Position numbers and translations under genes: made by a program. DNA of 64,000 bases from an uncultured Acidobacteriota bacterium (lineage in GTDB: Bacteria > Acidobacteriota > Thermoanaerobaculia > Gp7-AA8), in the NCBI GenBank assembly GCA_963822445.1, contig CAWGHO010000003.1, forward strand, positions 448,001 to 512,000. The letters are read 5' to 3'. Numbering within the stretch: position 1 is the first letter of the stretch; the number at the start of each line of letters is the position of its first letter. The notes under the pieces are model-generated. The model was not told where the DNA came from, did no database searches, and saw only the letters and a list, made by a program, of their open reading frames with translations. Below are positions 17,008-34,686 of this stretch, one piece after another.

Positions 17008-18459
17008 ATGTCGTATCCCATCTCCTTCGGCACCGACGGCTGGCGCGCCGTCATTGCCGACACTTTTACCTTCGACAACGTGAAGCTGGTCAGCGACGCC
17101 ATCGCCGTCGCGGCGCGGACGCTGAAGCCGCCCGCGGACGTCGACGCGAACGCGCTGATCGTCGGATTCGATCGCCGGTTTCTGTCGCGTGAATTCGCGG
17201 CGCTGGTCGCGGAGTCTCTGCGCGCGGCCGGATATCGCGTTCTGCTCTCCGATCGTCCCACGCCCTCCCAGACCATCTCCTTCACCGCCCGTCATCGCAA
17301 GCTCCTCGGCGGCGTCGTCGTCACGGCCAGTCACAACCCGGCCAACTACAACGGACTCAAATTCAAGGCGTGGTACGGCGGATCGGCGTTGCCCGAGACG
17401 TACGCGGCCATCGCGGCGAGCGTCGGAAAACGCGATGCGCGCGAAGGCGGCTCGATTGCCGAAGAGAACATCCTCGACGACTACCTCGACGCGGTACGCG
17501 CGCAACTCGATCTCGATCTGCTCAAGTCGGCGAAGCTGGCGATTCTGCACGACCCCATCCACGGCGCCGCGGCGACGCTGCCGTCGAAGATCCTCGGCAT
17601 CGATTACGTCGGCTCGCGGCGGATCCTCAATCGCGTCGAGCATCCTTTCGAGACCACCCTCATCGACGGCATTCGCGGAGACGTCAATCCCTCGTTCGGC
17701 GGCGTGAATCCCGAGCCGATTCCTGAGAATCTGGCGGCGTCCCGCAACGTGATGCTCTCCGGCGATTACGACCTGGCCATCTGCAACGACGGCGACGCCG
17801 ACCGGCTGGGCATCCTCGATGAGCGCGGCGAATTCGTCTCACCGCACAAGATCATTTCCCTGCTCGCGCTGTATCTCGTGCGGGAGAAGAAGCGCGAAGG
17901 GGAGATCGTGAAGACGTTCTCCACCACCCGGCTCATCGAGCGCGTCGCGAAATCCCTCGGCGCGACGCTGCACGAGACGCCGATCGGCTTCAAGTACGTC
18001 GCCGATCTGATGCTCGCCCGCAACGTCCTTGTCGGCGGGGAGGAGAGCGGCGGCATCGGCTTCGGCGCGTTCATGCCCGAGCGCGACGGCGTGCTCTCGG
18101 GCCTGCTCGTCGCGGAAGCGGTCGCGCATTACGGACTGCCGCTCTCCGACATCATCGCCAGGATGGAAAAGGAGTTCGGCGCGCTGCATTACGACCGCCG
18201 CGACGTCCGCCGTCCGATGGAACAGTGCGCGCGGCTGATCGAGCGCGTCCGCGCCGGCGAGCTCGATCGCACGTTCGGCGACGGCTTCGAATCCCGCGAG
18301 GAAACCGACGGCGTGAAGATCAACTTCGCCGACGGCTCGTGGATCCTCTTCCGCAAGTCCGGCACCGAGCCGCTCATCCGCATTTACTGCGAGAGCCTCG
18401 AGGCGGCGCGGGTGCAGTCGATGCTGGACCGGGCTGTTGAAGAGCTGGATCGCGTCTGA
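17008..18459 (+). CDS. Phosphoglucomutase/phosphomannomutase family protein
   Basis: FGTDGWRA, TASHNP, DGDADR, GGEESGG, RKSGTEP. Confidence 0.95.
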   Translation: MSYPISFGTDGWRAVIADTFTFDNVKLVSDAIAVAARTLKPPADVDANALIVGFDRRFLSREFAALVAESLRAAGYRVLLSDRPTPSQTISFTARHRKLLGGVVVTASHNPANYNGLKFKAWYGGSALPETYAAIAASVGKRDAREGGSIAEENILDDYLDAVRAQLDLDLLKSAKLAILHDPIHGAAATLPSKILGIDYVGSRRILNRVEHPFETTLIDGIRGDVNPSFGGVNPEPIPENLAASRNVMLSGDYDLAICNDGDADRLGILDERGEFVSPHKIISLLALYLVREKKREGEIVKTFSTTRLIERVAKSLGATLHETPIGFKYVADLMLARNVLVGGEESGGIGFGAFMPERDGVLSGLLVAEAVAHYGLPLSDIIARMEKEFGALHYDRRDVRRPMEQCARLIERVRAGELDRTFGDGFESREETDGVKINFADGSWILFRKSGTEPLIRIYCESLEAARVQSMLDRAVEELDRV

Positions 18460-18475
18460 GGTAGGATTCGGGCCG

Positions 18476-20841
<2,366 letters not shown>

Positions 20842-20842
<1 letters not shown>

Positions 20843-21168
20843 TGCTCGCAAAGACTCCTGATCCGCCCTATTACGCCGTGATCTTCACGTCGCTGCGCAC
20901 GCCGGTCGCGGAGGGTTACGACGACATGTCCGCGAAGATGGTGGAGATGGCCGCGCAGCAGCCCGGCTTCCTCGGCGTGGAAAGCGCTCGCGGCGAAGAT
21001 GGCCTGGGCATCACCGTTTCGTACTGGGAGAGCGAAGAGGCCATTGCCAACTGGCGCGCCAACGCCGAGCATCGCGTCGCGCAGTCGCAGGGTCGCGAGC
21101 AGTGGTACACCGAGTTCGTGACACGCGTGGCCAAGGTCGAGCGCGCGCGGACGTTCGCCGCGGGCTGA
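20842..21168 (+). CDS. Antibiotic biosynthesis monooxygenase (ABM) family protein
   Basis: PPYYAVIFTS...QPGFLGVESAR..GITVSYW...HRVAQ..GREQWY; TAATG coupling to the upstream gene. Confidence 0.9.
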
Positions 21169-21404
21169 GGGGAAACGACCAGGGGCCTCCGGCGGGCCGG
21201 CACGGCCGGCAGCGCTGATGTTGGCGTAAACGCGACCCGCGCTGGCTACCGCGAGCTCGGCAGAAGGCACAATCAACGCTGCCGGCCGTGCCGGCCCGCC
21301 TATAGCTTGTCCGACCGTCTCTCCGCTTCTCCCTCAGCCTTCACAGAAATACCCGTTGCGTGGCGATCAGGAGAACCGAGTTCAGACGGCGCGATACTAA
21401 GAAG

Positions 21405-21555
21405 AAGGGTTCGTCCCGCTACGAATTCCGCCCGTGTTCGGATCGACGAATCCCTCCGGACTTTCGAGCGGGACGAAGTGCTTTGGCCCGAAACGCATTC
21501 TCAGATGCTGTCGGAGCACGACTCGACTATAGGCCTTGCGCGCGGCCAAAGCCAA
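21405..21555 (+). ncRNA. IS110 bridge RNA (target-binding and donor-binding loops); the 5' end probably extends to about 21312
   Basis: Stem 21410-21420/21467-21477 encloses CCGCCCG (6/7 to the target left flank CGGCCCG) and CCTCCGG (reverse complement of core plus right target CCGGAGG). Stem 21480-21488/21544-21552 encloses CTCAGATG (matches the right-end donor) and CTATAGG (reverse complement of core plus left-end CCTATAG). Confidence 0.8.
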
Positions 21556-21572
21556 CCCGAAGGGAGGGTGTG

Positions 21573-22817
21573 ATGAGCGAGTTCGAGTTTGGGGCGTTGG
21601 TGGGACTGGATTGGGGTGACACATCGCACGAGGTGGCTCTTTGGGACGAGCAACAGCAGACGTGCACGAACGAGCGCATCGAGCACACGCCTGCGGCTCT
21701 GCGCGCATGGATCGAAGGCTCGGATGAAACGCCTCACGATACCGGGCTGCACTGCGTGGGTTGATCGGATACAACGTGACGAACGGATAGCCGCTGAGCG
21801 CGTCGAAGACCGCGCCGCGGGACTGCTCGATGGCCACGGCGATCGGTGCCCCGCCGAAGCGCGCCTGCAGCGCTTTCGAAAGACGATCCGACCGACGCGG
21901 CGTCCTTGCTCGACCTGCTCCGTAAGCACCGCAACGAGCTGCGCCCGTTCATCGCCGACGACGCTTCTACGCGTCTGCTGCGGCTTCTGACCGAGGATCG
22001 GCGGGAGCTCGTCGATCAGAGGACGCAACACGTCCAACGCATGACCGATCGGCTCAAGACGTACTACCCGCAGGCGCTCCGGTGGGCCGGCGCGTTGATT
22101 ACGGCGCAGGCCTGTGACTTCCTCGAACGCTGGCCGACGCTCGAGGCCATCCAAAGGGCTCGGCCGTCCGCGATACGGAGGTTCTATGCGGGTCATCATC
22201 ACGCGGCCGCGTGGATCGACCAGAAGCTCGCCGAGATCCGTTCAGAGGTCGCGTTCCACGACGATCAGGTCACCACTGACGCTGCCGTGCTGCTGATCGG
22301 AAGCGAGGTTGCGCAGATCCGGGCCCTCAACGCGAGCATCGCCACGTACGACCAGAAGATCTCGGCGGCGTTCGCCGCCCACCAGGACGCGTCGATCTTC
22401 GCGAGCTTCCCTGGCGCCGGCCAACAGCTCGCGCCGCGGCTCGCCGCCGCCTTCGGGACCGATCGCAAGCGCTTCGGCAGCGCCGTCAACGTCGCCACCC
22501 GAAGCGGCATCGCCCCGGTTCTCCGCCGGAGCGGCAAAACGGCGGTCGTGCACATGCGCTGGGCCTGTCCGAAGTTCCTGCGTCAGACGTTCCATGAGTA
22601 CGCCCGCGTGTCGATCGGTCAGTCCGAATGGGCTCGAGCCTTCTACAAGCAGCAACGCGCGCGCGGACACAGCCACCACGAGGCTATCCGCACGCTCGCT
22701 TACCGCTGGATCCGCGTCCTTTACGCCTGCTGGAACAATCGCACCGTCTACGACGAAGCTCTCTATCTGCGGCAGCTCGCCACGCGAGGCTCAACCCTCG
22801 CCACAGCTGCTGCCTGA
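21573..22817 (+). pseudogene. IS110 DEDD transposase/recombinase disrupted by an internal 157-bp inversion (21717-21873)
   Basis: GLDWG on the + strand, AVAIEQ...YPINP on the - strand, KDDPTDA and APVLRRSGK on the + strand. Flipping 21717-21873 yields a continuous 414-aa ORF. Confidence 0.88.
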
Positions 22818-22818
22818 C

Positions 22819-22841
22819 TTGACAGGAAGGCTCAGATGTCC
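22819..22841 (+). promoter_or_regulatory. -35 half of the IS110 circle-junction promoter
   Basis: TTGACA 22819-22824 plus 17 nt to the element end; circularisation joins it to TATAGC at 21301-21306. Confidence 0.75.
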
Positions 22842-22863
22842 GGAGGCCCCACGGTCGTTCTCT

Positions 22864-23631
22864 CTAGCCCCGCACCCGCTGACCGCCCGTGTACACGTTG
22901 AAGCGCCCGTCGCGCACGAATCCGAGGAGCGTGAGGTTGAATTCGCTCGCGAGCTCGATCGCCAGCGAGGACGGTGCACCGACCGCGGCCAGGACCGCGA
23001 TGCGCGCGACCAGCGCCTTCTGCACGATCTCGAAACTGGTCCGGCCGCTGACGACCATCACCCGATCGGCGATGCTCGCGCCTTCGCGGAAAAACGAGCC
23101 GATCACTTTGTCGACGGCGTTGTGCCGGCCGATGTCCTCACGAATGCGGACGAGCTCACCGGTTGTCGTGAAGATCCCGGCGGCGTGAATCGCACCGGTG
23201 GCGTCGAATGCCTTCTGTGCGGCGCGGAGTGTTTCGGGCAGCGACGAGATGATGGCGGGGGAGACCCGCGCGTTCGATTCGATTGGCGTGAGGTGCACGC
23301 GCAACGCGTCGATCGAGACCTTGCCGCACACACCGCACGACGACGTCGAATAGAAATGGCGTTGCAGGCGCTGCAGATCGAGTTTTTCACGGGCCTCTAC
23401 GCGCACGATGTTCGATGAGCCCCAGTGACGGATCGACACGATTTCCGTGGCTGCTCTGAGAATCGATTCGGTGAACAGGAACCCCGCGGCCAGGTCGAAG
23501 TCCTCGCCGGGCGTTCGCAGGGTTACCGAGACGGGCTTCTCGCCGACACGGATCTCCAGCGGTTCCTCGACGGCGACGATGTCCTCGGCTTCGGTGGGGA
23601 CGCCTGCTTCGTATCGGGTGATGCGCGTCAT
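22864..23631 (-). CDS. fdhD: Formate dehydrogenase accessory sulfurtransferase
   Basis: VEEPLEIRV..TLRTPG..LAAGFLFTE, SSCGVCG, TGAIHAA, REDIGRHNAVDK. Confidence 0.95.
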   Translation of the reverse strand: MTRITRYEAGVPTEAEDIVAVEEPLEIRVGEKPVSVTLRTPGEDFDLAAGFLFTESILRAATEIVSIRHWGSSNIVRVEAREKLDLQRLQRHFYSTSSCGVCGKVSIDALRVHLTPIESNARVSPAIISSLPETLRAAQKAFDATGAIHAAGIFTTTGELVRIREDIGRHNAVDKVIGSFFREGASIADRVMVVSGRTSFEIVQKALVARIAVLAAVGAPSSLAIELASEFNLTLLGFVRDGRFNVYTGGQRVRG

Positions 23632-23672
23632 CGTTCGACATGCTAGTGGAGCACTCCATTAAACTCCCGCCC

Positions 23673-26624
23673 ATGTGGCCGATCCTCCGCCAACTCCTGG
23701 GTGACAAGAACGCCGCAGTCAGCGAACGCACCCGCAACCTGCAGCCGAAAAACGAGAACACCAGCGTCGCGCGATCGGTCTGCCCGTACTGCGCGGTCGG
23801 CTGCGGACAGCTGGTCTTTCACCGCGGCGATCGCGTGGTCAGCATCGAAGGCGATCCCGCATCGCCCATCTCCCGCGGCCACCTCTGTCCCAAAGGCGCC
23901 GCGAGCTACGAGCTGGTCACGCACGCCGGTCGAGCCACGCGAGTGAAATACCGCGCACCGCGATCGCGCAAGTGGACGGAGCTCGATCTCGAGACGGCGG
24001 TGGACATGGTCGCCGACCGCATCTGGGCGACGCGCGAGCGCACCTTCGACGAAAAGCACAACCACACCACCGGCATCGCCCACCTCGGCGGCGCGACGCT
24101 CGACATCGAAGAGAACTACCTCATCAAGAAGCTCTTCACCGCCGGACTGGGGATGGTCTGCCTGAGCAATCAGGCGCGGATATGACACAGCTCCACGGTG
24201 CCCGGTCTGGGTACCACTTACGGCCGCGGCGGCGCCACGACCGCGCAGCAGGACCTCGCCAATTCCGACGCCATTCTGATCATGGGCTCGTCGATGGCCG
24301 AGAACCATCCAGTCGGATTCCAGTGGGTGATCGAAGCGCGCGAAAAGAATCACGCGAAGGTCATCCATGTCGACCCGCGATTCACTCGCACGTCGGCCAT
24401 GGCCGATTACTGGCTCCCACTGCGCGCCGGCAGCGACCTGATCTTCCTCGGCGCGATGATCAACTACGTCATCGCGAACGACCGCTGGTTCCGCGAGTAC
24501 GTCGTGCGCTACACGAATGCGGCGGTGATCGTCCGCGATGATTTCGTCGATACCGAGGATCTCGGTGGCGTTTTTTCGGGTCCGGAGACGTGGTTGTATC
24601 CGGACGCGCCGTCGGGATCGCGCGACACCGGCCATCGCGGCGAAGCACAAGGCGCGCCGCAAACGCCGCCCGATCCACCGCGCGACGAAACGCTGCAGCA
24701 TCCGCGATGCGTGTTCCAGGTGCTGAAGCGCCACTTCGCGCGGTACACGCCGGAGATGGTCGAGCGCTCGTGCGGGATTCCGGCGGCATCGTTTCTCGAG
24801 GTAGCGGACGTCTTCACGAGCGCTTCCGGACCGGAGAAGACCGCGTCGATCTGTTACGCCGTCGGCTGGACGCAGCATTCGAGCGGCGTGCAGACCATCC
24901 GCGCCGCGGCCATCCTTCAATTACTGCTCGGCAACGTCGGCCGTCCCGGCGGAGGAATCATGGCCCTCCGCGGACACGCGTCGATTCAGGGCTCGACGGA
25001 CATCCCCACGCTCTACGACATCCTGCCCGGCTACCTGCCCATGCCCACGTCGAGCGAGCCGTCCCTTGGCGACTACCTGAAGAAACACAAAGCGGCGAAG
25101 GGCTGGTGGTTCAACGTCGACAACTACCTCGTCTCGCTGCTGAAGGCTTACTACGGCGATGAGGCGAAACGCGAAAACGACTTCGGATACGCGTGGCTGC
25201 CGCGGCTCACCGGCGATCACTCCTACTTCGGCTACTGGCTGGACATGGCCGACGGCAAGCTCGAAGGGCTGATGGTCATGGGCCAAAACCCGGCGGTCGG
25301 CTCGCCGAACGCGAAGCTCGAGCGCGACGCGATGAAGAAGCTGAAGTGGATGGTTGTGCGGGAGATGGTCGAGACCGAAACGGCGATGTTCTGGCAGGAC
25401 GGGCCGGATGACGTCGAGACCGAGGTGTTCTTCTTCCCCGCGGCATCCCATGTCGAGAAGGACGGAACGTTCACCAACACCCAGCGCCTGCTGCAGTGGC
25501 GCGAGAAAGCGGTCGAGCCGCCCGGCGACGCCCGGAGTGAGCTGCAATTCATGGTCGCCCTCGGCCGCAAGCTCAAGGCCAAGGCGACGGACGCGCCGCG
25601 CGATGCGGCGCTCCGCGCGTTGACGTGGGATTACGCGGATGAAGATGCGGAGGAAGTGCTGCGGGAGATTCATGGCGGCCCGCGCATCAAGCACTTCGGC
25701 GAATTGAAAAACGACGGCTCGACCTACTGCGGCTGCTGGATCTACTCCGGCGTCTTCGACGGCGAGAACAAAGCAAACAACCGCGCGCCGAAAGGCCGCC
25801 ACGCGCACGGCTGGGGCTACGCGTGGCCGCTCGATCGCCGCATCCTCTACAACCGCGCCTCCGCGCGGCCGGACGGCAGACCATGGAGCGAGCGCAAGGC
25901 CCTGGTCTGGTGGGATGAAGAAAAGCGCGAGTGGGTCGGTCACGACGTGCCCGACTTCACTCGGGGAAAAGCACCCGACTATGTTCCAACCGCGGAGAGC
26001 GGCGGCGATGAAGCGCTGGCCGGCGACGCGCCGTTCATCATGCATCCCGACGGCATGGGCTGGTTGTGGGTTCCATCGGGCCTGAAGGACGGACCGTTGC
26101 CGGCGCATTACGAGCCGCTCGAATCGAACATCCGCAATCCGCTGTACGAACAGCAATCCAATCCCGCGGCTCTCCGTTTCGAGCGACCCGATAATCCGTA
26201 CGCCTCGTCACCCGACGCGCGATTCCCGTTCGTCCTCACCACCTATCGCCTGACTGAGCATCACACCGCCGGTGGCATGTCCCGCACGCTCTCGCATCTC
26301 GCGGAGCTTCAGCCCGAGCTCTTCGCGGAGATCTCGCCGGAGCTCGCGACGCAGGTCGGCGTGTCCAACGGTGAGTTCGTGACGATCTCCACGGCCCGCG
26401 GCGCGATCAATGCGCGTGCGCTCGTGACGACGCGCATGCCCTCGCTGCAGATTGACGGACAGACCGTGCACCAGGTCGGCCTGCCGTATCACTGGGGCGA
26501 TCGCGGTCTGGTGAAAGGGGACGTCGTCAACGATCTCCTGGCGATCTCCGAAGAGCCGAACGTGAAGATCTTCGAGTCGAAGGGGCTGACCTGCAATCTG
26601 ACGCGGAGTGCGTCAGCGGAATAG
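23673..26624 (+). CDS. fdhA: Selenocysteine-containing formate dehydrogenase alpha subunit (FdnG/FdoG-like); UGA-Sec at 24183-24185; alternative start 23640
   Basis: CPYCAVGCG...LCPKG Fe-S motif. NQARI-U-HSSTVPGLG joins two in-frame ORFs. Also AENHPVG, LRGHASIQG, LTTYRLTEH. Confidence 0.93.
24183..24215 (+). promoter_or_regulatory. UGA codon plus bacterial SECIS element
   Basis: TGA, 11 nt, then hairpin GGTGCCC-GGTCT-GGGTACC (24197-24215), matching the fdhF-type geometry and loop. Confidence 0.9.
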
Positions 26625-31464: not shown

Positions 31465-34400
31465 ATGGCCCGGCTCTTCATCTCCTACGCAAGAGCAGAC
31501 GGCACGGCCTTCGCCGACCAGCTGCAGCGCGACCTTCAACCACACGAGGTGTGGCTGGACCGGTCGGAGATCAGCGGCGGCGCGCAGTGGGAGGCTGAGC
31601 TCGAGCAGGCGATCGACGGTTGCGACGCCGCCCTTGCCGTTTTGACGCGGGCCTATCCCGCCTCGCGAGTCTCACGCGATGAGCTGCAGCGCACGCGTCG
31701 CAGGAAGAAGCCGATCATTCCGCTCCTCGTGCATGCGGATGCGGAACGGCAGCTGCTGCTCGAAAGCGTGCAGTACATCGATTTCTCGAATCCCGCCACG
31801 CGCGAGACGAGCATGGGCCAGTTGCGCGACCTCATCGCCAATCCCGGCGAGATCCCCCGTCCCGCCGACGCGGCGCCGGAGCTCACCTGGCAAACGATTG
31901 CCGCCCATGCTGGAAAGCAGGCGCGCCGTTTCGTGCAGGATCTCGAAGGAACGGCGAAAGCGCCCGGCACTTTCATCCCCGACGTGTACGTCCGGCGCGA
32001 GACGGCCGAGGATGCGCTGCGCGGGCTCCTGGAGAGCGAGGCCGCGGCGCTGATTGCCGTCGGCGGATCGGGCTCCGGCAAGACCAACCTGTTGTGCCGG
32101 TTCGTGGTGGACCTGCTCGATCAGGGACACGCCGTGCTCGCGTATGACTGCGCCGCGCTTGCTGATGATGAGGTAGGGGAGGAGCTGGTTCGCGACCTGC
32201 CCGTTGCGCGCGGCAGCGATCCGCTGGAGGCGCTGGAGAACATCGACGCCGAAGCGGCGCGCGCCGGGAAGAAGCTGGTGATCGTCTTCGATTCGATCGG
32301 CGACTATCGCGGCGATGAAAGCTCCGGCGTGCAGGTATTGCTGCGACGCATCAACGATCTCGCCAAACGCGCCGGCACGAACGTGAAGTTCGTCCTGACC
32401 TGCAACACCGCGGCGTGGGGCCGGCTGGAGCGGTTGGCGCCGATCCGCCTCGATCGCCGCGTCTACTACCGTTCGCCCGAAGACGAGCCCTTCCTGCGCC
32501 TCGACATCTTCACGCCCGCCGAGGCCGAAGCCGCGTATCGGCGCTACCAGCAGTTCTTCGAGCTCTTCTCGAACTTCGAGGATCTTCCGCCCGAAGTGCG
32601 CGAGCGGCTGCGCGATCCCGTGCTCTTGCGGATGACGGCGGAAGCGGGACGCGGCGAAAAGACGCCGCTGCTCGAGGTCGACTCCGCCCTCGGCGTCTAC
32701 GGCCGCTTTTTCGACGAGCGCGTGCAACTGCCGCGCGAGACGTGGCTCGTCGATAAGCTCGCCGAACAGATGCTGGCGGACAAGAGCAGTACGCTCGCCC
32801 TTTCCGATCTCTCCGGCCACAAAGACCTCGGCCAGGAGATCCTCAACGAAGATCCCACGTCCGTTTACTCGCGGCTCCTCGACAGCGGCGTGCTGCAGGA
32901 GGCGCATGGCGATCAACGCACGGGCCCTGTCGTCCGCTTCGCCCACGCGCGCGTCGCCGCGTACGCACTGGCGAAACATCTGCGCAAACAGCCGGTCGCC
33001 GAAACCACCGCGGGTCTGGTCGCGCAGAACGTGCGGTTCCCGCTCGGCTGGGACGTCGCCCGGACGCTGTTACTGCTGACCCGCGACAACGCCGCGATCG
33101 CGACACTTGCCGGGTCCGATGATGTCGAGCAGCGCGAGCTCGCGGCGGAAGCGCTGGTCGAGCTCCATGCCGAGGATGCGAAAGCCGCGCGTGAGCTGCT
33201 GCAGTCGCTCCTGAAAGACAAGTCCGAAGCGGCGCGCCGGACCGCGCTCAAGGCCGCGTACAACATCGGTCCGCAGACGCGCGACTTTTTCCTGCGCGCC
33301 GCGCTCGACCGCAACCGTTCCGTCCGCGAATCGGTGCGCAACACGCTCTATCTGATCTGGCGCAATGAATCGCCGGCCCGCCGGCGATCGGTCACCGACA
33401 CGCTCTATCTGATCTGGCGCCACTCGCCCGGCTTCACCTACGAGCTGCTGACCAGTCTCGTCGACGAGCTCAAACCGACGGACCTCATCGGTCGCGCGAG
33501 CGCGTTCCGTTTCGTGATCGAGCTGATCGTCACCATCTACATCAATCATTGTGAAGAAGAGGAAGTGATCCAGAAGACGGCGGCGCTGCTGCATCACCTG
33601 GCCGTCGACCGGATGCACCTCAATCTCTTCAAGACGGGCGTCTTTGGCAAGAAAGCGGAGCAGCTCTTCCTGGGCGTCCTCGCGAGCGCGTTTGCGGCGC
33701 CGGTTCTCGACTGGATGCTCTTCACCGATGGTCGTCCGGCGACGGCGTTCTTCAAGCTTCCACAGGAACAGCGCGCGCCGCTCGCCCGGATCGCCGATGT
33801 TTACGATCCGAGCTCCGATCTCGGCGCGGCGTATGACGATCTCGTGTCTTTGCTCGAATCGAAGATGCCGACTTACAGCGGTGCTGCGGCGGTGGCGATC
33901 GCCGTTCACGCCGCGAAGGATTTCGCGAGGACCGAGCCGCTGATTCGCCGTCTCTGGGATGGCGCGACTTCACAGGGGCGCCTCTGGATTCTGATGGCCT
34001 TCTCCGTCCTGATGAAACCGACGCCGCCGGAATGGGTCGAGCTTCTCGAGGATCTGACCCGCCGCTATGTCCGCGACCATCGCGATGCCTTCCTCGGCCC
34101 GGCCAGCCGTCTCGCCGGCGATCTCGATCTCGTATTCGTCCCTCTCGGACTGGCGTACGGCAAGCGGGGCGCGGGCATGCCGCTCTTCGAATCGCTCGTG
34201 CAGGAAGCGCTCGCCGCGAACGACACCGCCCTCCTCGCACGCTGCATCACTGCCCTCGGCCCGGTCGGTTTCTACTATCCGCATGCCGCGCTCGACGTCC
34301 TCGAGCCGGTCATGAAGGAGCTCGAGAAGAGCGATGTTGCGGAGGCGATGGTGGGGACGCTGGCGACCATCCGCATGCTGCACTTCGATGCCGTCAATCA

Positions 34401-34686
34401 GTTTCTCAATCGCACCGCGGCGGCCGAGGGATTGAGAAGGCGCATCGATACGGTCGCGGACGTTGGCCTGGTGCACAACTACATCCTCGTCCTTGGCTAC
34501 TTCAACAACTCCGTGCACTTCACGCTCAACTACCCGCGCATGCGCAAGGCGTTGTCGGCCGGCGCATTGAAGCTGCTGGCGGAAACGCGATCGCCACGGG
34601 AGTTTCTCGGCGCGTACACGGCCACGGCATGGCGGATGTTGCACGCCTCGAAATTCAAGGTGATCGAATGGACGCTGCCGGAGTAA
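31465..34686 (+). CDS. TIR domain + STAND (NACHT-like) P-loop NTPase + HEAT/ARM-like helical repeats
   Basis: LFISYARAD...VWLD..ISGG..W...SRDEL (TIR with putative catalytic Glu); Walker A GGSGSGKT; Walker B LVIVFDSIGD; DPVLLRM; winged helix LLDSGVL...VRFAH. Confidence 0.85.
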   Translation: MARLFISYARADGTAFADQLQRDLQPHEVWLDRSEISGGAQWEAELEQAIDGCDAALAVLTRAYPASRVSRDELQRTRRRKKPIIPLLVHADAERQLLLESVQYIDFSNPATRETSMGQLRDLIANPGEIPRPADAAPELTWQTIAAHAGKQARRFVQDLEGTAKAPGTFIPDVYVRRETAEDALRGLLESEAAALIAVGGSGSGKTNLLCRFVVDLLDQGHAVLAYDCAALADDEVGEELVRDLPVARGSDPLEALENIDAEAARAGKKLVIVFDSIGDYRGDESSGVQVLLRRINDLAKRAGTNVKFVLTCNTAAWGRLERLAPIRLDRRVYYRSPEDEPFLRLDIFTPAEAEAAYRRYQQFFELFSNFEDLPPEVRERLRDPVLLRMTAEAGRGEKTPLLEVDSALGVYGRFFDERVQLPRETWLVDKLAEQMLADKSSTLALSDLSGHKDLGQEILNEDPTSVYSRLLDSGVLQEAHGDQRTGPVVRFAHARVAAYALAKHLRKQPVAETTAGLVAQNVRFPLGWDVARTLLLLTRDNAAIATLAGSDDVEQRELAAEALVELHAEDAKAARELLQSLLKDKSEAARRTALKAAYNIGPQTRDFFLRAALDRNRSVRESVRNTLYLIWRNESPARRRSVTDTLYLIWRHSPGFTYELLTSLVDELKPTDLIGRASAFRFVIELIVTIYINHCEEEEVIQKTAALLHHLAVDRMHLNLFKTGVFGKKAEQLFLGVLASAFAAPVLDWMLFTDGRPATAFFKLPQEQRAPLARIADVYDPSSDLGAAYDDLVSLLESKMPTYSGAAAVAIAVHAAKDFARTEPLIRRLWDGATSQGRLWILMAFSVLMKPTPPEWVELLEDLTRRYVRDHRDAFLGPASRLAGDLDLVFVPLGLAYGKRGAGMPLFESLVQEALAANDTALLARCITALGPVGFYYPHAALDVLEPVMKELEKSDVAEAMVGTLATIRMLHFDAVNQFLNRTAAAEGLRRRIDTVADVGLVHNYILVLGYFNNSVHFTLNYPRMRKALSAGALKLLAETRSPREFLGAYTATAWRMLHASKFKVIEWTLPE

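Follow-up and report, generated by a model that had tools for sequence, protein, structure and literature searches.

The window, a 64,000-nucleotide stretch of the genome of an uncultured soil bacterium, carries an insertion sequence (IS) of the IS110 family whose recombinase gene is interrupted by a small internal inversion. The genome (G000) consists of 3 contigs (C1, C2, and C3) totaling 6.0 Mb at 64 to 65% G+C, and the element's closest named carriers are MAGs of the Thermoanaerobaculia (Acidobacteriota). The neighboring genes have housekeeping functions: they encode PNPase, phosphoglucomutase, an E1 dehydrogenase, an ABM protein, FdhD, and formate dehydrogenase. The gene for the formate dehydrogenase alpha subunit (positions 23640 to 26621) has an in-frame TGA at 24183 to 24185, after ...SNQARI, and resumes at 24198; this TGA may be a selenocysteine codon. 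Farther downstream, a 1,073-amino-acid protein (31465 to 34683) combines an N-terminal TIR domain (PF13676, E = 2.8e-23) with HEAT repeats. The features of the element and its insertion site are compiled in Table 1.

Table 1. Coordinates of the insertion sequence, its insertion site, its predicted RNA structures, and the parts of the rearranged recombinase gene
Feature	Position in window	Strand	Details
REP-like palindromic element holding the insertion site	21182-21300	.	right arm ends ...GGCCGGCCCGCC at the left end of the IS
IS110-family insertion sequence	21301-22841	+	1541 bp, TATAGC...GATGTCC, CC core at both junctions
Predicted target-binding stem-loop	21410-21477	+	5' loop side TTCCGCCCGTG, 3' loop side CCTCCGG
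Predicted donor-binding stem-loop	21485-21535	+	loop sides contain CTCAGATG and CTATAGG
Recombinase codons 1-48 (MSEF...ALRAWIE)	21573-21716	+	ATG 21573
Left microhomology AAG	21715-21717	.	within TCGAAG, 21712-21717
Inverted core, 155 bp, recombinase residues 49-100	21718-21872	-	reverse complement of five sister copies, no differences
Right microhomology CTT	21873-21875	.	start of 10-bp palindrome CTTTCGAAAG, 21873-21882
Recombinase codons 101-414 and stop	21873-22817	+	LSKDDPTDA..., stop 22815-22817

The termini of the element are TATAGCTTGTCC on the left and GATGTCC on the right. In all copies of this IS in the genome, the start is defined by CC followed by TATAGC and the end by GATGTCC followed by GGAGG. 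Insertion is thus site specific, with a short core at both junctions and no terminal inverted repeats, as in the IS110 family. The target lies in a REP-like palindromic element, the right arm of which resumes as GGAGGCCCC at 22842 to 22850, beyond the IS. The uninterrupted site, GGCCGGCCCGCC followed by GGAGGCC, occurs 33 times in the genome when up to 3 mismatches are allowed, giving 33 empty target sites (GGCCGGCCCGCCGGAGGCC), and all ten full IS copies occupy the identical position in one arm of this repeated intergenic palindromic element (10/10). Members of the REP-like family are roughly 170 bp each and present the IS target on both arms.

Besides the inverted window copy, the genome contains nine other full copies of the IS. 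Three of these sisters are mutually identical in sequence, from which it follows that the family moved recently. The window copy appears to be a mosaic: comparison of 21301 to 21430 with the most divergent sister (C3c, C3:120304-121873) shows a series of variants common to both over roughly the first 100 bp, and the rest of the window copy follows the main copy group. This pattern suggests gene conversion between copies. We also noted a second rearranged copy (L011, C1:940350-941438) that consists of right-end fragments joined head to head, in which element positions of about 848 to 1556, reversed and 100% identical, abut positions of about 1162 to 1564, forward and at 95% identity, with a one-base overlap at 941051. 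Other relatives in the genome include a second IS110-family element, present in three copies of about 1.48 kb (C1:330071-331554, C3:254275-255740, and C3:745361-746843), and a third, more distant DEDD-domain gene (C1:96099-96509). Altogether, there are 14 DEDD-domain matches in the genome.

Intact sister copies encode the recombinase in one 414-amino-acid frame (...AWIEALQARF...FHPSLSKDDP...). The protein matches the full PF01548 model (DEDD_Tnp_IS110) at residues 10 to 166 (E = 1.6e-28) and PF02371 (Transposase_20) at residues 274 to 359 (E = 1.3e-11), so that the intact sister has the N-terminal DEDD (RuvC-like) domain and the C-terminal Tnp domain with a conserved serine that are typical of the IS110 family. 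Similarity to the solved IS110-family recombinases is weak and restricted to the Tnp domain (ISCro4, E = 1.8e-5; IS621, E = 3e-4). A reading made earlier from the sequence alone had singled out a serine in the motif APVLRRSG, and this motif indeed aligns with the Tnp domain of the solved recombinases, RRSG lying opposite YESG of ISCro4.

The noncoding left end of the element, 5' of the gene, is 272 nucleotides long and is predicted to form two conserved stem-loops. In the first, which would bind the target, one loop side (TTCCGCCCGTG) resembles the left target, and the other (CCTCCGG) is the reverse complement of CC plus GGAGG. In the second, which would bind the donor, CTCAGATG is identical to the right end of the element, and CTATAGG is the reverse complement of CC plus TATAG at the left end. 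Guide-like matches to both halves of the target and of the joined element ends, left and right, comprise CCTCCGG, (C)CGCCCG, CTCAGATG, and CTATAGG. In a distant relative (L041), the 5' loop side (GAGTAACGG) and the flank (GAGTAACGCC) are altered together. The stems are conserved in an alignment of 13 relatives, with compensatory change in only 2 of the 51 predicted pairs, and an Rfam search of positions 20800 to 23200 at E values of up to 1 returned 0 matches. This left end with two stem-loops is the layout of IS110 bridge RNAs as described in PMC11208160, and the RNA itself is a prediction from the DNA. Two 7-mers that adjoin the breakpoints of the inversion described below, GGATCGA (21440 to 21446) and CTTTCGA (21461 to 21467), recur 14 nucleotides apart in the first stem-loop. 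We estimated the chance of both recurring there at about 0.02, a rough figure that overstates the rarity, as the two 7-mers are related and not independent. In the 13-relative alignment they map to apical-hairpin and basal-stem positions, outside the loop sides that bear the guides.

Based on these features, the closest known systems are the bridge-RNA elements of the IS110 group, including IS621 (Durrant et al. 2024, PMC11208160). The window IS shares with them the DEDD RuvC-like domain and the Tnp domain with its serine motif, a long noncoding left end before the gene, two predicted stem-loops with loop sides matching target and element ends, and a core dinucleotide at both junctions. It differs in that the core is CC rather than CT, its protein is only weakly similar to those of IS621 and ISCro4 (Tnp domain only), and its RNA is predicted and has no Rfam match. 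The ten copies at the same REP-like position and the 33 empty sites also resemble the REP-targeting IS110 elements of the ISPpu10 type, as outlined in 10.64898/2026.03.19.712850; host (here an uncultured soil member of the Acidobacteriota) and target sequence differ from those of ISPpu10.

In the window copy, the recombinase frame runs normally through codon 48, continues for 15 foreign codons, and ends at a TGA (21762 to 21764). The minus strand of 21717 to 21873 reads ALQARFGGAPIAVAIEQ...REAFHPS, 52 residues that belong between codons 48 and 101, and the inverted segment is 100% identical to five sister copies, the match covering query positions 416 to 576. Codons 101 to 414 also lie within a 323-amino-acid open reading frame that opens at a GTG at 21846. 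Reinverting 21718 to 21872 in silico yields a 1,541-bp element and a 414-amino-acid frame, lengths equal to those of the sister copies; the sequence-only reading had proposed the restored 414-amino-acid frame. The inversion is balanced, with no base gained and none lost, and the reading frames and the alignment to the sisters bear out the proposal of a clean intragenic event. It had been put at 157 bp; with AAG and CTT flanking the core, every choice of interval between 155 and 161 bp amounts to one and the same inversion, and 157 bp falls within this range. The microhomologies AAG and CTT are where they had been placed, inverted at the two junctions of a balanced product, as expected of a microhomology-mediated (template-switch) inversion.

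The rearrangement breaks the frame and leaves 3 in-frame TGA codons, consistent with the earlier view that this copy is inactivated. The gene is now divided between a stub of 63 codons and the downstream 323-amino-acid frame, in which the first part of the DEDD domain is missing and only model positions 92 to 155 of that domain remain along with the Tnp domain; judged by its reading frames, the window copy therefore produces no active recombinase. Its element ends and bridge-RNA region are intact.

We compared this allele with other copies of the element. The nine other full copies in the genome carry the segment in the opposite orientation (9/9) and have stop-free frames (9/9), which answers the check on other IS copies that had been suggested earlier. 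Copies in related genomes at 65 to 89% nucleotide identity are in the normal orientation and colinear (7/7). We retained 80 metagenome loci out of 358 relatives, and at none of them do the matches fall on both strands (0/80): 79 show a single match that spans residues 40 to 110, and the last has two, both on one strand. At 73 representative-genome loci, one match crosses residues 45 to 105 in 66 and is partial in 7, and again none involves both strands (0/73), these 80 and 73 loci having been picked by best match, a choice biased against finding split genes. Two genomes flagged as unpublished (G002 and G025) are included in the relative and orthologue tallies, and no claim is based on them. 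With 1 of 10 copies flipped in the genome and 0/7, 0/80, and 0/73 elsewhere, the inverted allele is derived and unique among all those examined. After reinversion, the window copy has 4 private variants, which all lie in its first 50 bp; gene and segment carry none. The lack of private variants in the gene indicates that the inverted allele is young.

The sequences flanking the inversion are short. Pairs concentric with it amount to 3 perfect ones, or 6 with a 1-nucleotide bulge (TCGA-AG versus CTTTCGA). An imperfect 8-bp inverted repeat had been reported at the breakpoints; the repeat itself exists (TCGAAGGC / GCTTTCGA, 7/8 pairs), but its register is one base off the inversion axis. In a sample of 200,000 random 155-bp genomic intervals, sliding microhomology of at least 3 bp was seen in 7.1% and flank pairing of 6 bases or more in 0.53%, so the flank match is modestly above chance. 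From this local complementarity, we conclude that the breakpoints were probably guided by it. Within the surrounding 351 bp we counted 24 inverted pairs of 6 nucleotides or more, and the flanking repeat is therefore not distinctive; it is far too short and ordinary to resemble a recombinase site. A perfect 6-bp pair (TCGAAG/CTTCGA, 64 nucleotides apart) lies nearby and was left unused by the inversion, and an 8-bp hairpin (CGAAGCGC/GCGCTTCG) spans the left breakpoint. A stable DNA hairpin joining the breakpoints was considered and rejected, the single-strand DNA fold of the region being no more stable than those of shuffled sequences (z = +1.33).

We also considered, and rejected, cutting and flipping at the TCGA palindromes by way of cohesive CG ends. 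This would have produced GGATCGAAAGG... and ...GCGCTTCGAAAG, whereas the window reads GGATCGAAGG... and ...GCGCTTTCGAAAG. The extra A/T did not move with the fragment, which places the exchange inside AAG/CTT.

Taken together, we consider it probable, with moderate confidence, that a recent, sporadic inversion guided by microhomology, likely through a template switch, inactivated one copy of an active, REP-targeting IS110-family element. Codons 49 to 100 (155 bp) would have been inverted between the AAG/CTT microhomologies within the weak inverted repeat TCGAAG / CTTTCGA, and the likely route would be that a nascent strand switched templates twice at a replication fork. The 3' end of that strand, ...TCGAAG, would have left its own template and paired with CTTTCGA on the opposite template. 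It would then have copied the segment backwards and returned to its own template at the second microhomology.

Polymerase template switching is known to invert the spacer between short, imperfect inverted repeats, as described in PMC8604942. The window copy resembles those cases in its short, nonidentical inverted repeats and in the exact flip of the spacer with nothing gained or lost. It differs from them in its very short arms (3 bp perfect), its long spacer (155 bp), and arms that are not homogenized; for the window copy, moreover, the mechanism is our proposal. A break followed by rejoining, or an off-target recombinase, would give the same product as the template switch. Further points that weigh against this explanation are the better inverted repeats nearby that went unused, a DNA fold that adds no stability over the shuffles, and the insertion-rich patch at 18765 to 20708, which ends about 600 bp before the IS and raises the concern that the assembled copy may rest on few molecules.

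That concern leads to a different explanation, in which the cellular DNA is normal and the flip is an artefact of assembly, polishing, or library preparation, introduced by a chimeric or rearranged molecule or by a single, poorly supported read where coverage is low. We regard this as unlikely, although several observations speak for it. The upstream E1 dehydrogenase gene (18437 to 20842; PF00676 and PF02779) is rich in indels relative to four orthologues: its 801-amino-acid open reading frame stays open, with about ten shifts of coding phase along it. The indels comprise 10 single-base insertions (at 18765, 19036, 19281, 19361, 19685, 19695, 19729, 20514, 20599, and 20708) as well as a 5-base deletion at 19608 and a 1-base deletion at 20459. 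These indels, mostly outside homopolymers, look like consensus error rather than decay. A patch of this kind just upstream means that read support at the IS locus may be thin.

The problem extends beyond one gene. Using a codon-phase model and defining a cluster as at least 6 direct phase switches in 2.5 kb, we counted 61 frame-switch clusters genome-wide with a bias toward insertions, as is typical of an underpolished long-read consensus. These phase-switch regions are often +1 biased, and several lie near contig ends (e.g., C1:2.6-55 kb and C3:1.874-1.882 Mb). At the level of single bases, assembly quality appears patchy. The resolution of ten 1.5-kb repeats in only 3 contigs suggests that long reads were used.

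Independent data also lack the inverted junction, in line with an artefact: the exact 24-mer of the inverted left junction had 0 matches in the metagenome contigs. This null has little power, since the normal left 24-mer is itself found at 0 of the 80 related loci (the normal right-junction 24-mer is found at 1 of 80). Contigs from three soil metagenome sets (containing 0.10, 0.06, and 0.05 of the sampled words), compared with positions 20000 to 24000, covered parts of the IS and did not bridge the inverted junctions. In one X2 contig, opposite strands join at 21717/21843, as would be expected from a relative's normal copy, and it is uninformative on the window allele.

Against an artefact, neither overlap nor graph assembly is, as far as we can judge, known to yield a balanced inversion with two exact junctions and a 100% identical segment, and the flanking repeat of merely 3 to 7 bp does not favor one either. 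The IS has no indel relative to its sisters (1,541 versus 1,541 bp), unlike the error-rich patch upstream. Finally, no other repeat in the genome is flipped: comparison of the genome with itself over 45 repeat intervals (73,625 bp) revealed no small inversion besides that of the window copy. As the sole signature of this kind in those intervals, it indicates that the assembly does not habitually produce flips.

The sequence-only reading had raised the prospect of a reversible switch of transposition, that is, a programmed intragenic inverton in which a site-specific recombinase toggles the recombinase gene on and off. Intragenic invertons are known in other bacteria (10.1101/2023.03.11.532203), and the window flip resembles them in lying wholly within a coding sequence and changing the product. 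The flip is also exact, the frame is restored on reversal, and short inverted sequences flank the segment. We nonetheless judge a programmed switch very improbable. Only 1 of 10 copies is flipped although all share the same flanks, and related copies are flipped in 0/7, 0/80, and 0/73 cases, so that the flip recurs in no sister copy or relative. Its concentric repeat has 3 perfect base pairs, or 6 with a bulge, short of the flanking inverted repeats of about 10 bp or more expected of an inverton and of the 11-position repeat of the thiC inverton described in the same source (10.1101/2023.03.11.532203). The repeat is also not distinctive, given the 24 pairs of at least 6 nucleotides in the same 351 bp.

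Nor is there a candidate enzyme nearby: a Pfam scan of 16 open reading frames between 7802 and 34683 (7.8 to 34.7 kb) detected no recombinase other than the IS gene, so that none lies within about 10 kb. Compared with the published intragenic invertons (10.1101/2023.03.11.532203), the window flip shows no recombinase-grade repeat, no nearby invertase, no second orientation wherever we looked, and no conservation in relatives. Nine intact copies would moreover make such a switch pointless, and the proposal of reversibility was not upheld on any of these counts.

The family to which the element belongs can itself invert DNA. The Piv/MooV invertases are IS110 homologues that invert pilin segments, and the dedicated inversion sites used by Piv lie outside the gene for Piv itself. 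In the window IS, in contrast, dedicated inversion sites are not evident. An IS110 bridge recombinase, encoded by this element or by one of the two further IS110-type elements, might have inverted the segment off target by acting on pseudo-sites on opposite strands, a scenario that we consider highly doubtful. In its favor, IS110 recombinases produce inversions from a donor and a target on opposite strands (PMC11208160), half-matched guides can suffice for recombination (10.64898/2026.08.31.748434), the genome has its 14 DEDD-domain matches, and the breakpoint 7-mers GGATCGA and CTTTCGA recur side by side in the RNA region at the rough chance of about 0.02 given above.

The breakpoints, however, do not look like guided sites, as the sequence-only reading had recognized in noting that they are unlike the CC-core guides of the element. 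They match the natural target or donor at 1 to 6 of 18 flank positions, compared with a mean of 6.1 and a 95th percentile of 9 of 18 for random 20-mers, and no breakpoint site has a CC core, the possible cores being AA, AG, CT, or TT. We thus rejected recombination by the element's own guides. Those of the two other IS110-type elements gave scattered 7-mer matches only and were likewise set aside. The recurring 7-mers fall outside the guide-bearing loop sides in the 13-relative alignment, and the breakpoints offer no two opposite-strand sites that match the guides and share the core. A variant in which the element's own or a sister's RNA-guided recombinase made the flip on half-matching pseudo-sites, silencing individual copies in a manner reversible in principle, seems very remote, and only the paired recurrence of the breakpoint 7-mers in the RNA region hints at it.

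We thus return to the one-time inversion guided by microhomology as the preferred account. Nine intact copies remain in the cell, and the flip accordingly has no regulatory role in transposition there. As it stands, the finding matters little: it concerns one dead copy of a multicopy IS, and either a mutation of a familiar class or a flaw in sequencing accounts for the break. The locus does offer a tidy natural case of an exact inversion flanked by microhomology, for which the nine intact sisters provide an unusually clean comparison of before and after. If the flip were recurrent or reversible, it would imply either a recombinase that acts on very short sites or a bridge recombinase that acts off target on its own gene.
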